This document shows, in pieces, positions 8,770 through 29,797 of a stretch of 64,000 nucleotides of DNA. The DNA lies in IMG/VR virus record IMGVR_UViG_3300010344_000850, positions 37,711 through 101,710 of that record; one strand, written 5' to 3'. The position numbers were made by a program, and so were the translations under genes. The stretch comes from a virus (lineage: Duplodnaviria; Caudoviricetes). Each line of letters begins with the position of its first letter. Position 1 is the first letter of the stretch. The notes below the pieces were generated by a model. It worked only from the letters and a program-made list of their open reading frames with translations. It made no database searches and had not been told where the DNA came from.

Positions 8770-11700
8770 TTGAGAATCACAAATATTCATAATATAAACA
8801 GAGAAACGTACCTCTTTTGTCGAAAGGAGGACGGAACTCAAGAAATCATTAAAGACAATTCCTTCTTCCCTTTCTATTATGAATATGACGCTCAGGGGAA
8901 ATATAGGGGATATGACGGAACTCCTCTTAAAAAAGTAATTGTAAGTAATCCTAGTGATGTTAGGAAGAATAGGTCTTTAGGTTCTTTCGGAAGCGATATT
9001 TCTTTTAAGAAACTTTACTTAACTCATAAAGTTAAGGAAATAGAAAAAGCTCCTGTTCGCTTTATGTTTATTGATATTGAAATTCAAACAAAAGAACTAC
9101 CCGATATTAGACAAGCTAAAGCTCCTATTACTTGTATCAGCGTTTATGATAGTTTCAATAAGACAGTAGAAACGTTCTGGATAAAAGATTATGATAGTGA
9201 GGAAACTCTGATTAATGAGTTTATTCATTATGTTAAACTCTGTAGTCCTGATTTGCTTTGTTTAACTCCTGATACAATAGTAAAAACACCTAATGGATTT
9301 ACAAAATTAAGCAATCTTAAAATTGGAGATACTGTTTTATCAGTTAATAAGGAGAACAAATTTTCAGAAGCGAAGATAATTAATCTTTTTAAAAGTAAAA
9401 AGGAACTGTTAAAGTTTACAACAAAAAAGGACACTATAACATCTTCAAAAGACCACCTTTTTCCTGTTTTTAATGAAAATGAGTTTAAAATTACTAACAG
9501 TTATCAAGCTACTTCTCTTAAAAAAGCTAAAGATATTAAAGAAGGAGATTTCTTTCTTAATCCTATTAATTATCTTCATGACGATGGAAAAAGAAGTGAT
9601 TTCCATTGGTTAATGGGCTATTATTTCGCTGATGGAACAAAGGGGATTAATAAGAGACTAGAAATCAAGGACGAAAATAAAGAGCTTCTAGAGGAAGCTC
9701 AGAAAATCTTTAAGGAACTAGGAATTGAATCTAAGATAAGACTATCTAAAACTTGTTACCTCTTATATTCTGAACAAAGTTTTAAAGCTTTGGCTTTAAA
9801 AAATAAAATAACAGAGAACTACAATAATCTTCCTACTTATTTGAACTCCTTATCAGTAGGAGAACAAATTTCCTTAATCTCTGGATTTATAGATGGAGAT
9901 GGAAGAGCTAACAGCTCTATGAGCGTAGGAACTATCAACGAATATCTCATAGATTGGATATCTTATGTTTTGTGGGGATTAGGCATCCCTAATAAAAAAA
10001 GAACAGATTTTCCTAGAAAAGAAACAAACGAAAAACCTTTTCACAGCGTAAATATTGAAAGAACGTCTTTTAATTCTATTTTTTACTTAAAGCACCCTAA
10101 GAAAAAGAAATATTTAACTCTTACTGATAAATGCTGTAACAATACAGTTCCTTTTATTAAAGTGTTACAAAAATTAGTAGGAACTTGGAAAATACAACTT
10201 CCTAGTTATCTGAAAAAAGAATTTTGGAAAAACGATTATCAAATCAATAAAAAAGCAGCGTTACATATTCTTAATTTTTTACTTTCTTGCAATTTAAAAC
10301 ATTCAAATAAACATTTTGTTTTAAAACTGATTAATCTTTTAGAAAACTTCTACTTCTCTAAAATAGAGGAAATAGAGGAAATTTCTGAGGGAGACACAAT
10401 AGAAATTAGCTTAGATAAACATTTTCTGTTTATAGCAAATAATATTTTAACACATAACTGTGGGTGGAACGTATCCTTCGATTATAATTATTTACATAAT
10501 CGTATCAAGAACTTCGCTAAAAGAATCAGTCCTATAAATCAAGATAGGTTCGCTCCTGAGGAATATAAGTATCCTGCTGGAATATCAATACTTGATTATA
10601 TGAGCCTCTTCAAAAAAGTATTCATGAGAGAGGCTAGTTACGCTTTGAACAACATTTCTCAGAAATACTTGAATGATGATGATTGGGGAGAGACGGACTT
10701 CTCACAGGTAACTGACGATATTAAAGAAAAGAATATCAATGACGTAAAACGCTTAGTTAAGTTAGAAGAAAAATTTAATCTATTAGGTTATTTTGATGAA
10801 ATTCGAAGATTGACGAAGGTACAGTGGGAAGACCTTTACCACAACTCCGCTATCATTGAATCTCTTCTTTTCGAAGAAGCTAAGAAGATGAATATCGTTC
10901 TCCCTAATAAACAGGAGAAGGTAGAAAACACTTCTTTTCAAGGAGCTACGAGAGAATCTAGTAAGACAGGGGCTTTATTTAATATCGGGAAGTATGATTT
11001 AGAATCAGCTTATCCTAGTATGATTATTAATTTCTGTTTAGATTTTCAGAACATTGTTACAGCTAAAGATACAATGACTCCTTCTGATTTAAAAAATGTA
11101 GTTGATATAGACGGAATATTGTTTAAACAAAATCCTAATACTCTTGTTCCGAATATGGTAAGAAAGATATTAACTCTTAAGAACAATCTCAAAAAAGAAC
11201 TCGCTGAACACCCTAGCGAAGAATTAAAACTTAAATATAACGCTATTAAGGCAGTGGCAAATAGTGCCTTTGGAGCTTTCGGAAATCAATACTTCAGGCT
11301 TTATGATAATAGGATTACATCTTCTATCACTTATCTTGTTAGAGATTTGTTGATGTATACTAAAGATGAGTTAGAAAAGAAGAGTATTGAGACAGTGTAT
11401 TGGGACACAGATTCAATTTTCGCTGATACTACAGTGAATATTCTCCCTATGTTAAACGAAACTATTCAAAAGTGGGGGAAAGAAAAGTACAATAAAGATA
11501 GTATAGCTTTAAAGTATGACTACGAAGGCTATTTCGAGAAACTCTTTCTCTTAGCCAAGTGTCGTTATATCGGATATCTTAATAAAAAAGGTAAAGGGAA
11601 GATTGAACAAGAAGTTAAAGGAGTTGAAGTAAAGCGAGTATCATCGGCTAAATTTGAAGGACAATTTCAAGAGAAGCTAATAGATATGATTCTAGATAAA

Positions 11701-12102
11701 AAATCTAGAGAAGAAGTAGAAGATTTTATCTTAGAACAAAAAAAAGCTTTAAAGAAAGCCCCTTTAGAAGATATAGCTTTCCCTATTAAATTATCCTCTA
11801 TTGTTTATAAAGGAAACCCTATTCAGAAAAGATGTTTAGATAATAGTAGAATAGTTTTTAAGGATATGAAAATAGGAGTAGGCGAAGTATTCTATTATAT
11901 CTTTGTAAAAGGCTACGGCTATGATAAATCTAATAAAGAAATTAACGTATTAGCCTTTAAAAAAGGACAGAATATTATTCCTAGAGAAAAGGTAGATTTT
12001 GAGGAAATGACAAGACGAAATATCGACGCTAAAATTTCAACAATCTATGAGGCTATGGGATGGAGCATTCAATCAGACGAACGTCAAGGGAGGCTTTTTT
12101 AA
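8770..12102 (+). CDS. Family B DNA polymerase with an intein in the 3'-5' exonuclease domain
   Basis: ExoI FIDIE, ExoII GWNVSFD, motif A YDLESAYPS, motif B KAVANSAFG, motif C YWDTDS, KGVEVKR. Confidence 0.95.
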   Translation: MRITNIHNINRETYLFCRKEDGTQEIIKDNSFFPFYYEYDAQGKYRGYDGTPLKKVIVSNPSDVRKNRSLGSFGSDISFKKLYLTHKVKEIEKAPVRFMFIDIEIQTKELPDIRQAKAPITCISVYDSFNKTVETFWIKDYDSEETLINEFIHYVKLCSPDLLCLTPDTIVKTPNGFTKLSNLKIGDTVLSVNKENKFSEAKIINLFKSKKELLKFTTKKDTITSSKDHLFPVFNENEFKITNSYQATSLKKAKDIKEGDFFLNPINYLHDDGKRSDFHWLMGYYFADGTKGINKRLEIKDENKELLEEAQKIFKELGIESKIRLSKTCYLLYSEQSFKALALKNKITENYNNLPTYLNSLSVGEQISLISGFIDGDGRANSSMSVGTINEYLIDWISYVLWGLGIPNKKRTDFPRKETNEKPFHSVNIERTSFNSIFYLKHPKKKKYLTLTDKCCNNTVPFIKVLQKLVGTWKIQLPSYLKKEFWKNDYQINKKAALHILNFLLSCNLKHSNKHFVLKLINLLENFYFSKIEEIEEISEGDTIEISLDKHFLFIANNILTHNCGWNVSFDYNYLHNRIKNFAKRISPINQDRFAPEEYKYPAGISILDYMSLFKKVFMREASYALNNISQKYLNDDDWGETDFSQVTDDIKEKNINDVKRLVKLEEKFNLLGYFDEIRRLTKVQWEDLYHNSAIIESLLFEEAKKMNIVLPNKQEKVENTSFQGATRESSKTGALFNIGKYDLESAYPSMIINFCLDFQNIVTAKDTMTPSDLKNVVDIDGILFKQNPNTLVPNMVRKILTLKNNLKKELAEHPSEELKLKYNAIKAVANSAFGAFGNQYFRLYDNRITSSITYLVRDLLMYTKDELEKKSIETVYWDTDSIFADTTVNILPMLNETIQKWGKEKYNKDSIALKYDYEGYFEKLFLLAKCRYIGYLNKKGKGKIEQEVKGVEVKRVSSAKFEGQFQEKLIDMILDKKSREEVEDFILEQKKALKKAPLEDIAFPIKLSSIVYKGNPIQKRCLDNSRIVFKDMKIGVGEVFYYIFVKGYGYDKSNKEINVLAFKKGQNIIPREKVDFEEMTRRNIDAKISTIYEAMGWSIQSDERQGRLF
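9259..10458 (+). mobile_element. Intein 3 (LAGLIDADG) just before the PolB ExoII motif
   Basis: Starts CLTPDT; SKDH; MGYYFADG and ISGFIDGDG; ends ILTHN followed by Cys. Confidence 0.95.
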
Positions 12103-12976: not shown

Positions 12977-14899
12977 ATGCCTAATAGAATTATTACAGAT
13001 GAATTTTTAAAAAAGTACAAAGGAAAACAACCTCCTTGGGGATACGCAGGCTTGGGATATGTGGTTTACAAACGCACTTATTCTCGTCTCAAGGAAGATA
13101 ACACTTATGAAGAATGGCATGAGACAGTAGCGAGATGTATTAACGGCTCACAGGAAATCGGAGCTGATTACACGAAAGCGGAAGCTGAACGTCTTTTTGA
13201 TTATATGTTTAATTTAAAGTGTAATATGGCGGGTCGTATGTTATGGCAACTCGGTACTTCTCATATTAAGCGTTACGGAGGAAATTCACTCTTGAATTGC
13301 TGGGCAACAAAGATTGATACACCTGAAGCGTTTTGTTTTCTTTTTGAGAATCTTATGTTAGGCGGAGGGGTAGGATTTAGCGTTAGCCGTGAGGATGTTT
13401 ATCAACTTCCTAATGTTAAAGAAGGAGTTAAAGTAGCTCATATTAACACAAAAGACGCTGATTTTATTGTTCCTGATAGTAGGGAGGGGTGGGTTTCATT
13501 ACTGAGAAGGCTTCTTAAGTGTTTCTTTATTACAGGACGTTCTTTCACTTATTCTACTATTCTTGTCAGAGGATACGGAGAGAGGATTCAGGGATTTGGT
13601 GGAACAGCTAGTGGCCCAGGGATTCTTGTAGACGGAATTGATAAGATTGTTAAAATCTTTCAAAGTAGAGAAACTAAGAAACTGCGTTCTGTAGATGTTT
13701 TAGATATCTGTAATATTATCGGTTCTATTGTAGTATCGGGTAACGTGCGTCGAAGTGCTCAGGTCTCCATAGGCGACCCTGATGATTATCTCTTTATGAG
13801 AGCTAAGAGGTGGGACTTAGGAGATATTCCTAATTGGAGAGCTTTGTCGAATAATACAATCTACGCCGATGACTACTCTCATTTAACTAAGGATTTTTGG
13901 GAAGGCTACGAGGGGAACGGAGAGCCTTACGGATTATTCAACGTTAAGTTAGCTCAAACAGTAGGTCGAGCAGGAGAACATAAAAAAGACAACGGCGACC
14001 TAGTGAATCCATGTTGCGAGATAGTCTTAGCTAATATGGAATGTTGTAATTTAAGCGAAGTTTATCTCAATAACGTAGAGTCTAAAGAAGAATTAAAAGA
14101 CATAGTAAAGCTTCTTTATAAGACACAAAAAGCTGTTTGTACTCTCCCTTTTATTCATGAAGAAACAAATAAAATCGTTCATAAGAATATGAGGATAGGA
14201 GTAGGGATGACGGGTATTTGTCAGTCATTAGAGAAGTTAGAGTGGTTAGATGAGACTTATAAGGATTTAAAACATTTTGATAAGGAGTGGAGTAAGAAGA
14301 AGGATTATTACGAAAGTATTCGTCTTACGACTGTTAAGCCTAGCGGAACATTAAGTTTGTTAGCGGGGGCTACTCCAGGAGTTCATCCTGCTTATAGTCA
14401 GTATTATATTAGAAGAGTGAGGATGGCTTCAGATGATAAGATGGTGAAGGTTTGTAAGGATTTAGGTTATCATACGGAATATGTTAAGAACTTTGACGGA
14501 ACTGAGAATTATAATACTACGATTGTAGAGTTTCCTTGTTATGCAGGGGATAATGTTATTGTAGCTAAAGACATGTCAGCCGTTAAACAGTTAGAATTAG
14601 TCAAGAAGATGCAGGAAATATGGTCGGATAATTCAGTGAGTGTTACTGTTTATTATAAAAAAGAAGAGTTGCCTGAGATTAAGAAATGGTTAAAAGAGAA
14701 TTATAAAAATAGTCTTAAAACAGTCAGTTTTCTTCTTCATCAGGAACACGGCTTTAAACAAGCTCCTTACGAAGAAATTACTAAAGAAAAATATAATGAA
14801 TTAATGAAGAATATTAAACCTATTAAGTATTCTAAAATCGACGGAGGAACTGATTTAGATGTCGAGGAATGTGCGGGAGGAGTTTGCCCTATCAAATGA
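12977..14899 (+). CDS. nrdJ: Class II (adenosylcobalamin-dependent) ribonucleotide reductase
   Basis: KRTYSR, GGGVG, VVSGNVRRSA, NPCCE, TVKPSGT, C-terminal CAGGVCP. Confidence 0.95.
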   Translation: MPNRIITDEFLKKYKGKQPPWGYAGLGYVVYKRTYSRLKEDNTYEEWHETVARCINGSQEIGADYTKAEAERLFDYMFNLKCNMAGRMLWQLGTSHIKRYGGNSLLNCWATKIDTPEAFCFLFENLMLGGGVGFSVSREDVYQLPNVKEGVKVAHINTKDADFIVPDSREGWVSLLRRLLKCFFITGRSFTYSTILVRGYGERIQGFGGTASGPGILVDGIDKIVKIFQSRETKKLRSVDVLDICNIIGSIVVSGNVRRSAQVSIGDPDDYLFMRAKRWDLGDIPNWRALSNNTIYADDYSHLTKDFWEGYEGNGEPYGLFNVKLAQTVGRAGEHKKDNGDLVNPCCEIVLANMECCNLSEVYLNNVESKEELKDIVKLLYKTQKAVCTLPFIHEETNKIVHKNMRIGVGMTGICQSLEKLEWLDETYKDLKHFDKEWSKKKDYYESIRLTTVKPSGTLSLLAGATPGVHPAYSQYYIRRVRMASDDKMVKVCKDLGYHTEYVKNFDGTENYNTTIVEFPCYAGDNVIVAKDMSAVKQLELVKKMQEIWSDNSVSVTVYYKKEELPEIKKWLKENYKNSLKTVSFLLHQEHGFKQAPYEEITKEKYNELMKNIKPIKYSKIDGGTDLDVEECAGGVCPIK

Positions 14900-23752: not shown

Positions 23753-24339
23753 AAGTTGAATTGTTAGCTATAACTCCTAATTCAGAAGAACTTATTGAAA
23801 AGGCTACAAGAACTTGTTATGACTCTGAGTGTAATCCTGAGACAAGGACTTCTTTTCTTAAAGGAGTAATGAAAAGAGGTCATGAATCCGTTATAGAACA
23901 CGCTTCAGCTACCTTTAAAATAGAGGGTGTTTCTAGGGCTTTAACTCATCAATTAGTACGTCATAGAATTGCTAGTTACTCTCAAGTTAGTCAGAGATAT
24001 GTCAAGTTTGATAATTTTAAATATATTGTTCCTCCTGAAATTGAAAGAAACAAAAAAGCTAAACAAAAATTTGAAGAAACTATGAGTTCTATTAGAGTAG
24101 CTTATGAGAATTTAGTTTACTTAGGAATTAAAGCGGAGGACGCTAGGTTTGTTCTTCCTAACGCCTGTGAGACAGAGATTGTAGTTACGATGAATTTTAG
24201 AGCTTTAAGGAACTTTTTGAAGTTAAGATTAGATAGTCATGCACAGTGGGAAATAAAAGAGCTTGCACATAGAATGTTAGAAATACTCTATGGGCAAGCC
24301 CCGTCTATTTTCGAAGATTTAAAACTAGCTGTAAGTTGA
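23749..24339 (+). CDS. thyX: Flavin-dependent thymidylate synthase
   Basis: GHESVIEH, ThyX motif RHRIASYSQVSQRY, EDARFVLP, HAQWEI. Confidence 0.96.
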   Translation: MKVELLAITPNSEELIEKATRTCYDSECNPETRTSFLKGVMKRGHESVIEHASATFKIEGVSRALTHQLVRHRIASYSQVSQRYVKFDNFKYIVPPEIERNKKAKQKFEETMSSIRVAYENLVYLGIKAEDARFVLPNACETEIVVTMNFRALRNFLKLRLDSHAQWEIKELAHRMLEILYGQAPSIFEDLKLAVS

Positions 24340-25317
24340 ATCTTTGTAATCCATAGTGTAGTGGTGATTATCAACAAAGAAAGCCTGTTTATTAGCTACT
24401 GAACTAGACGAGCGTATCATGTACGACCCCTCATAAGCGGAGTTTCCTGTATTACGAATAGTTACATAGATTGAACCGTTATAGCTACAGAATTTCCACT
24501 CCTCATTTAAAAACTCCTCGCTTGACATAGCTAGAAGCCCTATTACACTATCCGAAGGGATAATATAGTAGGCTTCGGCTACTGTCACAGGAGTAGTCGT
24601 AGTAGAAAATCTCACCCAATATTTTGTCTCTCCGTCTATAGCCGTAGTAGCCCAATCCTCAGGAATTGTCCACGTTATTTTTCCGTCACTCTCAAAGCCT
24701 GATGTAGCGTCAGCATATTCTAAACCCGAAGCTCCTAGTTCTTCCCACGTAGCTCCGTTATAATATTCCGCTACTAAAGTATAATTACTTCCTCTTGTAG
24801 AGAACTCAAATTTAGCTCCTCCGAAAGTACTAGCTTCTCCTAGATAAAGATATTCTGTAGTATCGCTCATCAATTCAAAAGCTGTTCCTTCTTCTGTACC
24901 CGCTTCTGTAGTATTATCAGTATAAGTTGACCCGTCATTTAATAGAACAAAATCAAAAGCCGTAGCTGTTTCAGATGTAGCTAAACCTTCATTAGTTAAA
25001 GATTTATCATCAAAGTAGAGTTTATTTCGGATATCATAAGCGTAATTATCAGGTGTATATTTCCATATTGAATAGCCCGATTCAGCGTGAATATGAGTAA
25101 ACCCTGTATAAGTAGCTAGAGTATGACCTAAAGATACATTTCTCAGGTACTTGCGTTGATAAGCCGACCCTAAATCAGTATATAAAGCGTCCACTTCATT
25201 TTTATTAAATTCAGCTTTATCAATCTTTCCGTTGAGAGCCAATATCATATCATTTAACAATGAAATCTTTTGACTCACGGTAAGATTTTCATTGACTTTA
25301 TATATTGAAGTTGTCAT
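24325..25317 (-). CDS. Virion structural (tail-associated) protein
   Basis: Last gene of the late arm; Thr/Ser/Gly/Tyr-rich beta composition. Confidence 0.55.
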   Translation of the reverse strand: MTTSIYKVNENLTVSQKISLLNDMILALNGKIDKAEFNKNEVDALYTDLGSAYQRKYLRNVSLGHTLATYTGFTHIHAESGYSIWKYTPDNYAYDIRNKLYFDDKSLTNEGLATSETATAFDFVLLNDGSTYTDNTTEAGTEEGTAFELMSDTTEYLYLGEASTFGGAKFEFSTRGSNYTLVAEYYNGATWEELGASGLEYADATSGFESDGKITWTIPEDWATTAIDGETKYWVRFSTTTTPVTVAEAYYIIPSDSVIGLLAMSSEEFLNEEWKFCSYNGSIYVTIRNTGNSAYEGSYMIRSSSSVANKQAFFVDNHHYTMDYKDSTYS

Positions 25318-25334: not shown

Positions 25335-25715
25335 TTATAAATAGTTATTAAATATAGAGTGTTTATCTCTTTTATCTTTTATTTTAAAAGAAACGGAAAT
25401 CTTTATATATTCAGGATAAGCACTCCATTCGTCTCCTTGTTCTAATGAAAATTTCCAATTTTTTATAGTTTCTTCCGCTGCTTTGTCTAATCTTTTATTT
25501 CCTGAACTTTTTTCAATAGCAGTTCTACCTACTGTTCCTCCAGGCAAAATCTCAACAGCTACTATAGTAGTTCCTTCAATTCCTGAACGAAATAAAGAAT
25601 CTGGATATTTAACAGCAGCAACATAAGAAGTAAAAAGAAGTTTTCTTTTTACTTCATCAGCTATTGAAATTTGACAAAATATAAAACATAGTAAAAAAAT
25701 AAAAAACGTTTTCAT
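25335..25715 (-). CDS. Secreted TonB C-terminal-domain protein
   Basis: Signal peptide ending SIA-DE; KYP...GIEGTTIVAVEILPGGTV...SSGNKRLDKAAEETIKNWKF...ISVSF matches the TonB_C pattern; no Pro-rich linker. Confidence 0.85.
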   Translation of the reverse strand: MKTFFIFLLCFIFCQISIADEVKRKLLFTSYVAAVKYPDSLFRSGIEGTTIVAVEILPGGTVGRTAIEKSSGNKRLDKAAEETIKNWKFSLEQGDEWSAYPEYIKISVSFKIKDKRDKHSIFNNYL

Positions 25716-25945
25716 TGTACTTTTGTGTAATGTTTTTTTATAGGTTCAGATAATAATCTATAATCAGTTTTTCCTATACATCTTTTTAATCTTTGATTTG
25801 TAGTTCTATCAGTATATTGTCCTGTACAATAACAAGAATCAAAAGAATTCATATTATTACATTCGTTAAATAAATCAATGTTTTCCTTTGAACTCATACT
25901 AAAAACAAATAAACAAAAAATTAATATTAAAGATTTTTTTTTCAT
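25712..25945 (-). CDS. Small secreted Cys-rich protein (77 aa)
   Basis: MKKK + hydrophobic signal; four Cys in the mature part; AAGGA RBS; ATGA-coupled to the TonB-like gene. Confidence 0.65.
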   Translation of the reverse strand: MKKKSLILIFCLFVFSMSSKENIDLFNECNNMNSFDSCYCTGQYTDRTTNQRLKRCIGKTDYRLLSEPIKKHYTKVQ

Positions 25946-25958
25946 ATTTTTCCTTATC

Positions 25959-26651
25959 TTACTCGCATAAAATTAAATTTACAGTAGAACCTGATGAGCG
26001 AACTCCCCCAATGAACTGAGCAACACCTACCACACCACAAGTTGTCCACTTCATCTGAACACTAGTAGAACTTATTTTCGCTAATCCAGATTTTAAAGAA
26101 TACATTGGCATTGGAGGGAATGGAAAGCCAGGATGATGAGAAAAAATTGCTGAGTGCCAAGGAGAAAATATATAATAAGGATTAGAATAATTTGGATGAG
26201 AATAAGTTGACCCTATAGTAGCTATTCCTGATTCTAAAATTTTAAATGAATTAGATAAAGTATGATAAATCAAATTCCCTAAACTATCCCTTATCCGTAA
26301 TCCATATTCAGAAACAGAGGATGTTATCAATTCTTTTTTTAAAGTAAAAATTTTATAATCAAAAGAACAACTTCCGTGAACTCCAGCTCCTTCTTTTCCT
26401 CCGAAAAAGCGAACTCCAGTATAATAAGGATTAGAATAAGAAACGTCAAATACTCCGCATACTCCACTAGAATCACTAGTAGGTCTTATAGCAGCTATTG
26501 GAGGATAGAGATTATTGTCTATACTAACAGTAGTAGATAGTCCCTCTAAACTCGAAATACTTCCTGTTTTTTCTAATAAATAATTTGAATATACAGAATC
26601 AATTTGTATTTCACTTTTTGTATTGTTTATTTTTAGTCCGTAATCACTCAT
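25959..26651 (-). CDS. Tail tip accessory / putative receptor-binding protein
   Basis: Two YGL-x-I repeats (DYGLKINN, EYGLRIRD) as in proteins following the central fibre of T1/phi80-like phages. Confidence 0.65.
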   Translation of the reverse strand: MSDYGLKINNTKSEIQIDSVYSNYLLEKTGSISSLEGLSTTVSIDNNLYPPIAAIRPTSDSSGVCGVFDVSYSNPYYTGVRFFGGKEGAGVHGSCSFDYKIFTLKKELITSSVSEYGLRIRDSLGNLIYHTLSNSFKILESGIATIGSTYSHPNYSNPYYIFSPWHSAIFSHHPGFPFPPMPMYSLKSGLAKISSTSVQMKWTTCGVVGVAQFIGGVRSSGSTVNLILCE

Positions 26652-26660
26652 AATCGTCCT

Positions 26661-26957
26661 TTAAGTATAAGAAAAACAAAAATTAACACAAGTAGCAGGA
26701 GTAATGAAAGTAGAAAAACTCCAAGTACTCCAACTTATTGTTGTTCCGCTTCTTGAAATCATATGAGCAGATTTGCTTGGATCTGCATTAACTGGAATAG
26801 AAAAAATCCCTGTCAATTTCCCTGATATTTGAGACAAAGCTCCTGAGTTTCCTGCAGATGCAGTTTGTGAAGAAGTATAACTCAATCTCGTAATTCTATC
26901 AACTAAAGTTAAGTTTTCTTCTCCTTTATAATTATAAACTCTAAGACCGTAGCTCAT
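26661..26957 (-). CDS. Small tail tip protein
   Basis: MSYGLRVYNYKG start coupled to the stop of the central fibre gene. Confidence 0.65.
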   Translation of the reverse strand: MSYGLRVYNYKGEENLTLVDRITRLSYTSSQTASAGNSGALSQISGKLTGIFSIPVNADPSKSAHMISRSGTTISWSTWSFSTFITPATCVNFCFSYT

Positions 26958-29797
26958 TACTGTAATAATCCCATCTCTACTCGTAAAGCACACTGTACAT
27001 CAGCTTCATAAGACAAAGCCCCTGTGTCATCTGCAGTCGTGTCAAAACCAATAGCTCTTCCACAAGTCGTAGCTGTGTTCGCTCCTGAAGACCACAAAAA
27101 TGTTAATGTAGTTAAAGTAGAATTAGCTATAGTAATTTTACGAGTTGTAGAACTATAAGTCACAGTAGTATTGCTATCTCCAACAGCTCTCATTTTAGCT
27201 TGTATCTCTGCTGCTAATTCAGTAGGAGTGTAATCATCAGCGTCTAAATCTGCTGTTTTTGTACTACCGTTTTCAGTCCAATCTAAATCATCGTTTACTC
27301 CAGCTTCAATGGTCACTGTATCTCCATAAACTCTAACAGATTCGTTTTCTCCTTCTATATCTAAATTTGAACCTACACTTAATTTTCCTGTGATATCGCC
27401 TGAAGTAATAGTCATCTGCCCTTTAACGTTAAAAGTCTCCTCAGAGGAATCCCATTTCGCTCCTTTAGAATTGCTATAATCTCCGAAAATAACATCTCCT
27501 GAATCACTCCCTGAAGTTAAAATTTTAAATATTTCATTTCCGCTACTTTCATCGTCATAAGCTATAAAACTATTCGCTGTAATAACAATCCTAGCTCCCG
27601 ATGTAGCTGTCCGAATAGTACCTCCTGTAATTGTAGTCCCTGTAATAGATACAGCGTCTAAACTTCCTGAAGTAATACTTCCTAGATTAGCTGATATTGC
27701 AGCTAAATTGTCTACTATTATCTTATCGGCGGTAATTGAATCCGCCTCTATCCTATCAGCATCTATATATCCGCTAACTATATCTTCAGCGTCTAAAACT
27801 CCCCTAATTGTTAATGTAGCTCCATCCCAATCAATGTAATGAAATCCATCTCCGCTATTTTCTGTTCCTCCAAAATGAAAAGTTCCGTCATTTTTTATAT
27901 AAGCTTTCCATTCATCTCCATCAAAATAGCCTAAATAATCAGCAGATAAATATAATCCTTCATCAATATCAGGAGTAGAACCTACAGAAGATAGTGTTAA
28001 TTCCCACTCTCCTACTTTTATTTCATCAGCTCCAGAAGAAGCAGCTCTATATAATCTATTATTATCCGTATTTAACCATAAATCTCCCTCAGCCAAAGAC
28101 GTAGGAATTCCTTCTCCTGTTGTTGTAGCTGATTGAACAAAAGAGGTAATACCTCCAGAACCACCGCTCTGCGATATTATAACCCAAGCTCCAGCCTCCC
28201 TTAAATATAATTTATTTGAATCGTCCGTATCAACCCAATAATCTCCGTCCTTAACAGTTTGGCCGCTAGTAGGAGGCTCTTCGTTTTGATAAAAAGTTAC
28301 AGGGATAACTGTTCCATTAGTTATAGTAATATCTCCTTTAATCCTTAATCCGTTTACAGGGTCATATTTAAGATAATTATCAGCGTCACCTATAGCTGTT
28401 CCGTAAGCGTCTTCCGTGTATCCTAAGAATCCGTTAAGATTTCCTATTCTAAGTCTCGTAGTAGGGGCTATCCAAGGAGTAGTTCCTGTATTAATAACCG
28501 ACATATAAGGAGCGTTAGACTCTGAAGCGGTCATATAAATCATACCGTCCGTAGAAGAACCGTAATTAATTACCGCTGTTCCTTTTTTCCATATCGGATT
28601 ATTATCAGCCGTATAATCTCCCGCTTTGTCTCTAGTTACAGAATAAGTGTTTCCTGATACTCCTGTCACTTCAAACCACTCATCATCTACTCCGTCCTTA
28701 ATTCTAAGAATATCTCCTACATCAAAAGTAGTATCTCCTGTAATAGTTAAAGTAGAAGAATCTAGAGCTGTCATATCTAAATCTAAAATATCAGAATCGG
28801 CTACTAGTAAATTCCCTCCTACTGAAGAAATAGTTTCTTTTTCAAATACTGAAGTAGTGAATTTCCCTCTAGCTCTAATGTTATTAAATTCAGCGTCTCC
28901 GTTATCTTGAATCTGAAAACCTGTACCTAAAGCCCCGCTAACGAAATCTCCGCTTTGAATAGAGTTCTTAGTAACAACAATATTACCGACTCTAGCTCCG
29001 TCTACAGAAAATCTAGCTATTTCAACTCCGTTTTCATCATAGAAGAAAGTACCGTTCTTATTAAGTCTCATTAAACGATTACCGCTAGTAGATTTAAGCC
29101 TCATTTCCCTACTATCAAGCTCTAATGAACCCGAAGAATTAATAATCTTTAAATCCTCAGAAAGGCGGATATTCCCTATTAAATTATCAGCTAAAATAGG
29201 ACTAATATTATCCCTAAGAAGTTCTACAGTATCTTCCTCGAATTTTCCGTATTTATCTCCATGTAAATCATAATCTCTTTGATTCACTATATAAGCATCA
29301 TAAGAACTCTCAGAATCTTTATTGTTTACTATAAAAGCCGTAGTTCCAGGCTTAGGAACAATGATTTTAGCTAATACGAGTTTCTTAAAATCGTAGCTCT
29401 TATCAATGATAATAGCGTTATCAAAGAGAACTACATAGAAAACCTCAGTCTTATTGTCAAAAGGAATAGGTACTGTAATGTCTTGTTTAGTTTCATAATA
29501 GCGTCCGTAAGACACCCCTCTTCCTACTTCTACAATAACTGAAGAAGAAATAGGGGAAGTAGCTTTAACGTATAATCCTGAGATAATTCTAGGACGAATA
29601 ACCTGAGACATGAGGGTTTGCATTGAGTTAACGATAGCTGCACTCGTAATGTCGGATATAGAACTCCCTGTTAAAGGAGATATTTCAGGTCTTTTTAATT
29701 GTTCGCTAGTTCTAAGACCTTGAGAATACTTTGTTCTAGACTCAATTTCATTTACGACTAATTCATATAAACTAGAGTAGCTAACCTTGCTGGTCAT
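26957..29797 (-). CDS. Central tail fibre / host-specificity protein
   Basis: GDYWVDTDD/GDLWLNTD repeats, ITADKI, LAAISANLGSITSG, ends RVEMGLL as in lambda J-type C-termini. Confidence 0.75.
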   Translation of the reverse strand: MTSKVSYSSLYELVVNEIESRTKYSQGLRTSEQLKRPEISPLTGSSISDITSAAIVNSMQTLMSQVIRPRIISGLYVKATSPISSSVIVEVGRGVSYGRYYETKQDITVPIPFDNKTEVFYVVLFDNAIIIDKSYDFKKLVLAKIIVPKPGTTAFIVNNKDSESSYDAYIVNQRDYDLHGDKYGKFEEDTVELLRDNISPILADNLIGNIRLSEDLKIINSSGSLELDSREMRLKSTSGNRLMRLNKNGTFFYDENGVEIARFSVDGARVGNIVVTKNSIQSGDFVSGALGTGFQIQDNGDAEFNNIRARGKFTTSVFEKETISSVGGNLLVADSDILDLDMTALDSSTLTITGDTTFDVGDILRIKDGVDDEWFEVTGVSGNTYSVTRDKAGDYTADNNPIWKKGTAVINYGSSTDGMIYMTASESNAPYMSVINTGTTPWIAPTTRLRIGNLNGFLGYTEDAYGTAIGDADNYLKYDPVNGLRIKGDITITNGTVIPVTFYQNEEPPTSGQTVKDGDYWVDTDDSNKLYLREAGAWVIISQSGGSGGITSFVQSATTTGEGIPTSLAEGDLWLNTDNNRLYRAASSGADEIKVGEWELTLSSVGSTPDIDEGLYLSADYLGYFDGDEWKAYIKNDGTFHFGGTENSGDGFHYIDWDGATLTIRGVLDAEDIVSGYIDADRIEADSITADKIIVDNLAAISANLGSITSGSLDAVSITGTTITGGTIRTATSGARIVITANSFIAYDDESSGNEIFKILTSGSDSGDVIFGDYSNSKGAKWDSSEETFNVKGQMTITSGDITGKLSVGSNLDIEGENESVRVYGDTVTIEAGVNDDLDWTENGSTKTADLDADDYTPTELAAEIQAKMRAVGDSNTTVTYSSTTRKITIANSTLTTLTFLWSSGANTATTCGRAIGFDTTADDTGALSYEADVQCALRVEMGLLQ

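Follow-up and report, generated by a model that had tools for sequence, protein, structure and literature searches.

We analyzed a 64,000-nucleotide stretch of viral DNA (hereafter, the window), corresponding to bases 37711-101710 of IMG/VR record IMGVR_UViG_3300010344_000850 (101.7 kb, rated 93% complete), and concentrated on two adjacent genes that encode a predicted secreted Cys-rich protein of 77 amino acids (aa) and a predicted exported protein of 126 aa consisting largely of a TonB C-terminal domain, here called a TonB head. The genes lie on the minus strand in the order 946-aa fibre, 98-aa, 230-aa, 77-aa, 126-aa and 330-aa, followed by a convergent thyX (Table 1). The positions given in a preliminary description, made from the DNA sequence alone, were confirmed on that strand for the 98-aa, 230-aa, 77-aa and 126-aa genes, as was the coupling of the pair through an ATGA at 25712-25715, in which the stop codon (TGA) of the 77-aa gene overlaps the start codon (ATG) of the 126-aa gene. 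The reported succession of a J-like fibre and two YGL genes ahead of the pair was also recovered, in the form of the GpJ-related 946-aa fibre and the 98-aa (MSYGL) and 230-aa (MSDYGL) proteins. The same description placed the pair behind the receptor-binding genes; it does adjoin tail-fibre genes, but it is not the end of the module, in that the fibre-like 330-aa gene comes after it.

Intergenic gaps in this run measure 9-17 nt, and a purine-rich, AAGGA-type ribosome-binding site precedes every start. The 77-aa and 126-aa genes are indeed very AT-rich, with G+C contents (GC) of 20.9 and 27.6%, respectively (9-10% at third codon positions), compared to 33.9% for the window, and no 611-nt stretch of the window has a lower GC than the cassette (which falls in the lowest 0.03% of such stretches). 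Scans for promoters and terminators did no better than chance (33 promoter-like sites where 27 were expected), so that nothing points to separate expression of the pair.

Table 1. Features of the late tail-fibre region and the reductase gene of the window, with amino acid identity and the ratio of nonsynonymous to synonymous substitution rates (dN/dS) relative to the JGI fragment L027
Feature	Coordinates	Strand	Identity to L027	dN/dS	Remarks
946-aa tail fibre, related to distal part of GpJ-type protein	26957..29797	-			phrog_1330 'tail protein'
98-aa YGL protein	26661..26957	-	55%		begins MSYGL; PHROG 2427/557; homologues after GpJ-like genes in L026 and G102:C41
230-aa YGL protein, no signal peptide, paired with 98-aa gene	25959..26651	-	40%		PHROG 4062/3370
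77-aa secreted ORFan (predicted), four Cys	25712..25945	-	93.5%	0.09	stop overlaps TonB-head start
126-aa exported TonB C-terminal domain protein (predicted)	25335..25715	-	89.7%	0.32	signal-like residues 1-19, 15-residue spacer, head approximately 35-113
330-aa protein, last gene of late operon	24325..25317	-	77%		homologue of N-terminal 327 residues of 729-aa fibre-like protein
Adenosylcobalamin-dependent ribonucleoside-triphosphate reductase	12977..14899	+			TIGR02505 374.5 bits against equivalog cut-off of 340; PF21995 B12-dependent RNR insertion domain

Hidden Markov model searches with the 126-aa protein returned matches above the curated cut-offs to both TonB_C (PF03544; 54.4 bits, cut-off 24.6, E 1.7e-14; 55.1 bits in a genome-wide search) and TIGR01352 (60.9 bits, cut-off 27.1). 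The proposed architecture, a TonB C-terminal domain devoid of the Pro-rich linker, holds. The hydrophobic segment (residues 3-19, ending ISIA/DE, with the slash at the putative cleavage site) is separated from the domain by a spacer of only about 15 residues (20-34), with no Pro-rich or periplasm-spanning linker, and residues 1-19 contain no His and thus no His-bearing ExbBD-coupling anchor motif. In the domain itself, the YP motif (Y37 and P38, ahead of the first strand) is invariant in both alignments of relatives, and the YP motif, an RxG-EG-like motif and the terminal β-strand, which is the strand that pairs with the TonB box, are all kept and invariant across the seven known variants of the protein.

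The predicted three-dimensional fold is consistent with these results. An AlphaFold2 model computed with 15 homologues has a predicted local distance difference test score (pLDDT) above 90 across the domain, and comprises strands at residues 48-56, 61-69, 88-91 and 102-110, the last being the terminal edge strand, and a helix at 74-85. Foldseek searches with this model retrieved the TonB heads 9dc4_T, 2gsk_B, 2grx_C and 6i97_D, with template modelling (TM) scores of about 0.8 over 82-90 alignment columns, and the best structural matches include TonB heads solved on BtuB, FhuA, FoxA and TbpA. Solved TonB heads were also recovered by sequence, using a profile of the 126-aa family.

For both proteins, we assessed cleavage of the signal peptide by visual inspection and from the pattern of conserved residues. 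All seven variants of the TonB-head protein are 126 aa long and, as in the three variants of the 77-aa protein, the hydrophobic N-terminal core varies and the mature part is nearly invariant. The residues preceding the N-terminal Cys of the 126-aa protein are LL and IF, which are not lipobox residues; the 77-aa protein, with IF before its N-terminal Cys, has no lipobox either, and its signal Cys is replaced by Phe in variant P0167. The combination of variable hydrophobic cores, conserved mature parts and, in the 77-aa protein, a non-conserved signal Cys fits cleaved Sec signals in both proteins and argues against lipoproteins.

The 77-aa partner agrees with its initial portrayal as a Cys-rich, signal-bearing protein. 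Its Sec-type N-terminus (by eye) is made up of MKKK, a hydrophobic run and SMS/S, and is followed by approximately 58 residues with four Cys that are invariant in its only two homologues among 5.8 billion clusters searched. No Pfam family matches it, PADLOC matched no cassette or flanking protein, and its sole PHROG match (phrog_14930, function unassigned) has an E value of 0.006. The AlphaFold2 model of this protein reached a pLDDT of 55, and a search of the ESM Atlas produced sub-threshold matches only. Complex prediction with the mature 126-aa and 77-aa proteins yielded a score of 0.01 and no model, a result that weighs neither way.

Near-identical proteins for either cassette gene number only a handful among the 5.8 billion clusters. 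Two of the sequences that carry them, both JGI fragments, confirm the anticipated linkage to tail-fibre genes in relatives: L027 has the order fibre end, 103-aa, 226-aa, 77-aa, 126-aa and start of a 330-aa homologue, and L028 the order TonB-head gene end, 729-aa version of the 330-aa protein and LamG gene, the last of which lies 23 kb off in the window. In the window, L027 and L028, the pair sits between the YGL pair and a further fibre-like gene. Close homologues also occur on a 20.5-kb ENA contig, an 18.7-kb NCBI contig (OQB09559.1) and a 12.6-kb Logan contig, on which the two genes probably occur together, to judge from the matching lengths of the contigs listed for each; scans of IMG/VR with the 126-aa protein and with the alignment of relatives uncovered no further TonB-head relatives. 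The 87% identical homologue OQB09559.1 (P0003) is encoded on a contig assigned to the Parcubacteria bin ADurb.Bin216; because members of that lineage are expected to lack an outer membrane, the contig is probably a misbinned piece of phage DNA.

Sequence divergence within the region is markedly uneven (Table 1). The two cassette proteins are approximately 90-94% identical to those of L027 and under purifying selection, with adjoining fibre genes down to 40-55%, indicating on sequence grounds that the pair is a conserved, selected module within a mosaic fibre region. These observations also bear on the notion that the cassette is a functionless passenger acquired with a mosaic fibre module. Its outlying composition would agree with such an origin, as would its absence from a more distant relative, the IMG/VR contig L026, but we regard it as highly improbable in view of the dN/dS values of 0.09 and 0.32, the constant length of the TonB-head protein in seven variants from several sources, and the intact ATGA coupling and ribosome-binding sites. 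In L026, lambda-type M, L, K and J genes are followed by two successive 98/230-like pairs and then by small membrane proteins, and no TonB_C domain is found anywhere in its 43.7 kb, which identifies the cassette, by gene content, as an insertion in one lineage. The preliminary description had likened this slot to the one that holds cor in other phages; in L026 the slot is taken by the second YGL pair and then the small membrane proteins, that is, by neither cor nor the cassette.

To place the domain among its cellular counterparts, we examined 2540 TonB_C relatives found among 1.8 billion representatives. The closest single-domain relatives, of 165-205 aa, share 48-59% identity with the phage protein over the head and have a signal-like N-terminus and a spacer of approximately 60-70 residues; those with a named source come from Omnitrophota. 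A pattern scan of 185,579 species genomes pointed in the same direction, with 13 top loci comprising eight from Omnitrophota/Omnitrophica and five from metagenome-assembled genomes labelled 'uncultured bacterium'. In all 13 loci the TonB gene directly follows that of a TonB-dependent receptor, and the 12 loci that continue beyond the TonB gene (L012 ends there) have a gene for a BtuF-like binding protein on its downstream side, sometimes with CobQ in between. A cobalamin riboswitch was detected just upstream of the receptor in five of eight loci tested, and the Omnitrophota receptors contain a TonB-box-like motif, A[DE]VTV[LIV]. A 145-aa gene lying between receptor and TonB in some Omnitrophota loci was considered as possible kin of the 77-aa gene and rejected as unrelated.

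The short Omnitrophota TonBs (L002:9749-10255, OGX13904.1 and MBU9888642.1, among others) resemble the phage protein not only in their heads but also in their N-terminal pattern and in a PPFP lead-in that most phage variants have kept. In L002-L014, the signal-peptide-like N-terminus ends in a conserved A-Q-E. In contrast, they have the longer spacer and the receptor and BtuF-like neighbours described above, compared to 15 residues and tail-fibre neighbours for the phage gene, and the Omnitrophota genomes that encode them have a GC of 49-59%, compared to 27.6% for that gene. In a maximum-likelihood tree, the phage proteins define a clade with 100/100 support inside the Omnitrophota group (94/92), with NC10 and Syntrophaceae outside it. 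A long stem, of 2.04 substitutions per site, connects this phage clade to the group.

Such a long stem raises the question of whether the TonB fold has been put to another use, the head binding peptidoglycan, the 77-aa partner or another envelope protein, or serving to time lysis or sense superinfection. The tight coupling to a secreted ORFan under strong purifying selection would suit a new function of this kind, and the TonB/TolA fold serves as a binding module of general use in the periplasm, with TolA domain III among the weaker fold matches of the 126-aa model. We nonetheless consider it unlikely, given that the three retained features (YP motif, RxG-EG-like motif and terminal strand) do not vary among the seven variants and that the best fold matches are TonB heads in receptor complexes.

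Five Omnitrophota genomes of the donor type (G002-G006) each encode a single TonB_C and a single Plug domain, next to each other and downstream of a cobalamin riboswitch, and neither ExbB nor ExbD was found in any of the five, which suggests a TonB system operating without its usual motor. These results are also relevant to the possibility that the phage protein is an uncleaved, linker-deleted TonB, anchored in the inner membrane, which would compete for the membrane partners of the host TonB while falling short of the outer membrane. The N-termini of the phage and Omnitrophota proteins are alike (a Cys-containing hydrophobic run, then A-[QD]-E), and the hydrophobic stretch of approximately 17 residues forms one helix in the model. 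However, small residues at -1 and -3 and acidic ones at +1 and +2 are as expected of a signal-peptidase site, variation is concentrated in the hydrophobic core rather than in the mature part, and there is no His/SHLS-type motif; moreover, with no ExbBD found in donor-type genomes, there is nothing obvious to compete for. An anchored protein is therefore improbable in our estimation.

The nesting of the phage domain among Omnitrophota TonBs suggests that the host is probably a member of this phylum. Together with the lambda-type M/L/K/J tail-tip genes of related phages, it also makes the diderm host envisaged initially a likely one. The GC of the phage (34%) is well below the 49-59% of the loci with the nearest TonBs; other sampled Omnitrophota genomes range from 37 to 46%. 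A DNA search of 401 Omnitrophota genomes produced no convincing match of the CRISPR-spacer type (clustered regularly interspaced short palindromic repeats), but did identify a 5.8-kb contig, G102:C41 (43.5% GC, in a genome of approximately 46%), with a tail module like that of L026. This contig constitutes a second pointer to an Omnitrophota host, albeit a weak one because it is a short binned contig. Its sequence (L040; G102:C41:1-5813) encodes an NlpC/P60 protein, a 1387-aa GpJ-like protein and then 99-aa and 222-aa YGL proteins, a gene order and set of open reading frame lengths that, by eye, are those of L026.

On these grounds, we tentatively propose that the 126-aa protein is a phage-captured TonB head that is exported and occupies the TonB box of a host TonB-dependent transporter, a reading that we find plausible, if somewhat short of probable. 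The captured TonB would have been cut down to an export signal and a receptor-docking head, made late in infection with the tail-fibre genes and exported to the periplasm. Such a free head should be unable to transduce energy, because it has no linker of periplasm-spanning length and no His-bearing anchor motif, and the phage carries no ExbBD genes (no ExbD was found in the 101.7-kb record). It would most likely occupy the TonB box of the host transporter, which in the donor lineage is a single cobalamin importer, and thereby take that transporter out of TonB-dependent operation. A free, box-occupying head is favored because the protein keeps the grip of TonB on transporters without its reach from the inner membrane and its pull, and a location of the gene beside those for fibres would suit a protein directed at the receptor. 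The 58-residue disulfide protein translated together with it would probably contribute to the same function as a second component in the periplasm.

The make-up of the donor operon, in which a cobalamin riboswitch precedes the genes for the receptor, TonB, CobQ and a BtuF-like protein, and the presence of one Plug domain, one TonB_C domain and no detectable ExbB/ExbD in five of five genomes, could also be accommodated by a different scenario, absent from the preliminary description, in which the cassette acts as an auxiliary metabolic gene and the soluble head opens, or holds open, the cobalamin importer, raising the supply of corrinoids. Its premise is that the phage reductase, which scores above the TIGR02505 cut-off (Table 1), needs adenosylcobalamin, and that the head was copied from the TonB of the only, riboswitch-controlled cobalamin importer. 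The plus-strand half of the window carries the replication genes, including a family B polymerase with an intein, RecA, the adenosylcobalamin-dependent ribonucleotide reductase and ThyX, and the minus-strand half a long late operon with the tape-measure gene, a gene for a 1312-aa tip protein and the fibre genes. The polymerase gene (8770-12102, plus strand) is split by the intein, which carries a LAGLIDADG domain. The TonB-head gene belongs to the late tail-fibre operon, a long way from the early/replication genes, among them that for the reductase, and in the opposite orientation. In addition, B12 is a recycled cofactor for which the extra demand would be small, no Rfam family, cobalamin riboswitch included, was detected in the window, and free heads, which are inhibitory in E. 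coli, are not known to drive transport by any mechanism. The place and orientation of the gene and the inhibitory effect of free heads where tested lead us to rank manipulation of B12 uptake below transporter occupation, and to regard it as quite unlikely.

The E. coli periplasmic TonB fragments that Howard et al. are said to have described in 2001, and which reportedly inhibit transport by FhuA and FecA, likewise consist of the C-terminal portion of TonB exported without its anchor; those fragments are laboratory constructs, whereas the window presents a natural phage gene from another phylum. The likely benefit of occupying the transporter would be that of T5 Llp and T1/phi80 Cor, in that the receptor is shut off and rivals or the phage's own progeny are not lost on cells already infected. 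Irreversible adsorption of T1 needs TonB (PMC11658791). The T5 llp gene adjoins the receptor-binding gene, and Llp, working in the periplasm, jams FhuA (PMC9586334); phages that depend on FhuA are blocked by Cor (PMC13673623). Like Llp and the Cor proteins of T1, phi80 and N15, which put a TonB-dependent transporter out of action on its periplasmic face (PMC9586334, PMC13673623), the cassette proteins are small, exported (by prediction here) and encoded beside receptor-binding genes, and the mature 77-aa protein further resembles Llp in size (approximately 58 aa compared to 61) and in its disulfide-capable Cys. The cassette nevertheless shows no sequence or profile similarity to Llp or Cor and no lipobox in either gene, and Llp binds the plug rather than the TonB box.

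Contrary to the preliminary description, which presented the cassette as new, genes encoding nothing but a TonB head are already annotated in several phages. In Klebsiella phage ST13-OXA48phi12.4, a 'TonB family protein' (QBQ71922.1) with a lipobox (LLGC) and a TonB_C domain is encoded between the lysis genes and the terminase. Protein-level searches identified homologues with 37-40% identity in 14 further records, including Escherichia phage 21 (OL657228.1), Stx1a-converting phages, JLK-2012, ev017 and Perceval, annotated as 'TonB C-terminal domain', TonB-like or TonB fragment; the Klebsiella gene had no DNA-level match in E. coli genomes. These temperate-phage heads share with the window protein a length of approximately 110-125 aa and an architecture limited to export signal, short spacer and TonB_C. 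The Klebsiella head, the only member translated, differs in having a lipobox and occupying a lysis/terminase slot in a temperate phage; in the window, the protein has no lipobox, its gene is coupled to that of a Cys-rich ORFan, and the pair lies in the tail-fibre operon of a 100-kb phage that is probably virulent. The two proteins are only 26% identical, tblastn with the window protein finds no enterobacterial-phage head, and the latter groups with Omnitrophota TonBs; by these sequence comparisons, the heads are separate captures from different host TonBs, which suggests a general benefit. No functional study of any phage TonB head was found in the literature searched.

Two further sets of database matches were encountered in these searches. 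The INPHARED matches named 'Acinetobacter phage MD-2021a' were rejected, since these records, which contain tonB-tolQ/exbB-exbD and ssu genes, look like pieces of bacterial chromosome filed under phages; the genes in L033 (CAKLQH020000024.1) and its three sister records of that name include tonB-tolQ-exbD, ssuD, oppA and one for an outer-membrane receptor. A protein with tandem TonB_C domains (P0019) was matched to two PHROG families, phrog_34172 (E 2.4e-6) and phrog_1267 'Rz-like spanin' (E 1.3e-3), and the spanin label of phrog_1267 may, judging by this match, be wrong for at least some members.

Several considerations weigh against occupation of a TonB box as the role of the 126-aa protein. 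We infer TonB-box binding, the choice of receptor and exclusion from sequence comparisons, and the same is true of the host, which is uncultured. The long stem of the phage clade means that binding specificity may have changed, and the distant relative L026 manages without the cassette. The failure to find ExbB and ExbD in donor-type genomes implies that the energized TonB cycle on which the dominant-negative logic from E. coli depends may be absent there. Furthermore, no tyrosine or serine recombinase (integrase/resolvase) was found in the phage record, and the phage is on that account probably virulent; combined with the location of the gene in a late operon, this would leave no role in protecting lysogens and would confine exclusion to late infection.

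The genes flanking the cassette conform to a tail-tip assignment. The true start of the 98-aa gene is an ATG that shares one base with the TAA stop codon of the 946-aa fibre gene, and the fibre itself is 54% identical over 105 aa to the C-terminal part of a 1387-aa L026 protein with FNIII-A_GpJ and Phage-tail_3 domains. The 230-aa protein, a probable tail-tip accessory, has a second, internal YGL motif in addition to the one at its N-terminus, and its homologue in L026, located after the GpJ-like gene, is 57% identical, compared to only 40% for that in L027. The two successive 98-aa/230-aa YGL pairs of L026 (L026:7692-9685) follow the GpJ-like gene, so that YGL pairs behave as duplicable modules and are perhaps alternative adaptors of the tail tip. 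On the other side of the cassette, the 330-aa protein is 81% identical to L028:160-2349, which runs on for 400 more residues; the 330-aa gene ends where the 729-aa protein of this relative goes on, and its end overlaps the convergent thyX. From this alignment, the 330-aa protein is probably a C-terminally truncated fibre.

Free TonB heads have thus been captured independently in at least two unrelated phage settings, the lambdoid and Klebsiella temperate phages and the fibre module described here. This convergence argues for a general phage strategy in which a host docking domain disables or hijacks TonB-dependent transporters from the periplasm, and the coliphage heads make the jamming idea directly testable. 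To this picture the window adds a connection with receptor-binding genes, a possible partner protein and a candidate target, the riboswitch-controlled cobalamin importer, as well as leads to the host of this phage group and to a motorless Omnitrophota TonB system. The most specific form of the proposal, in which the head and the 58-residue disulfide protein act as two parts of one periplasmic device that jams the only cobalamin importer of an Omnitrophota host, this importer being also the phage receptor, is one that we hold to be rather doubtful. If true, however, it would represent superinfection exclusion built from the host's own energy coupler, and would for the first time assign a receptor and a host to phages of an uncultured phylum of nanobacteria, whose sole TonB-dependent transporter apparently operates without ExbBD.

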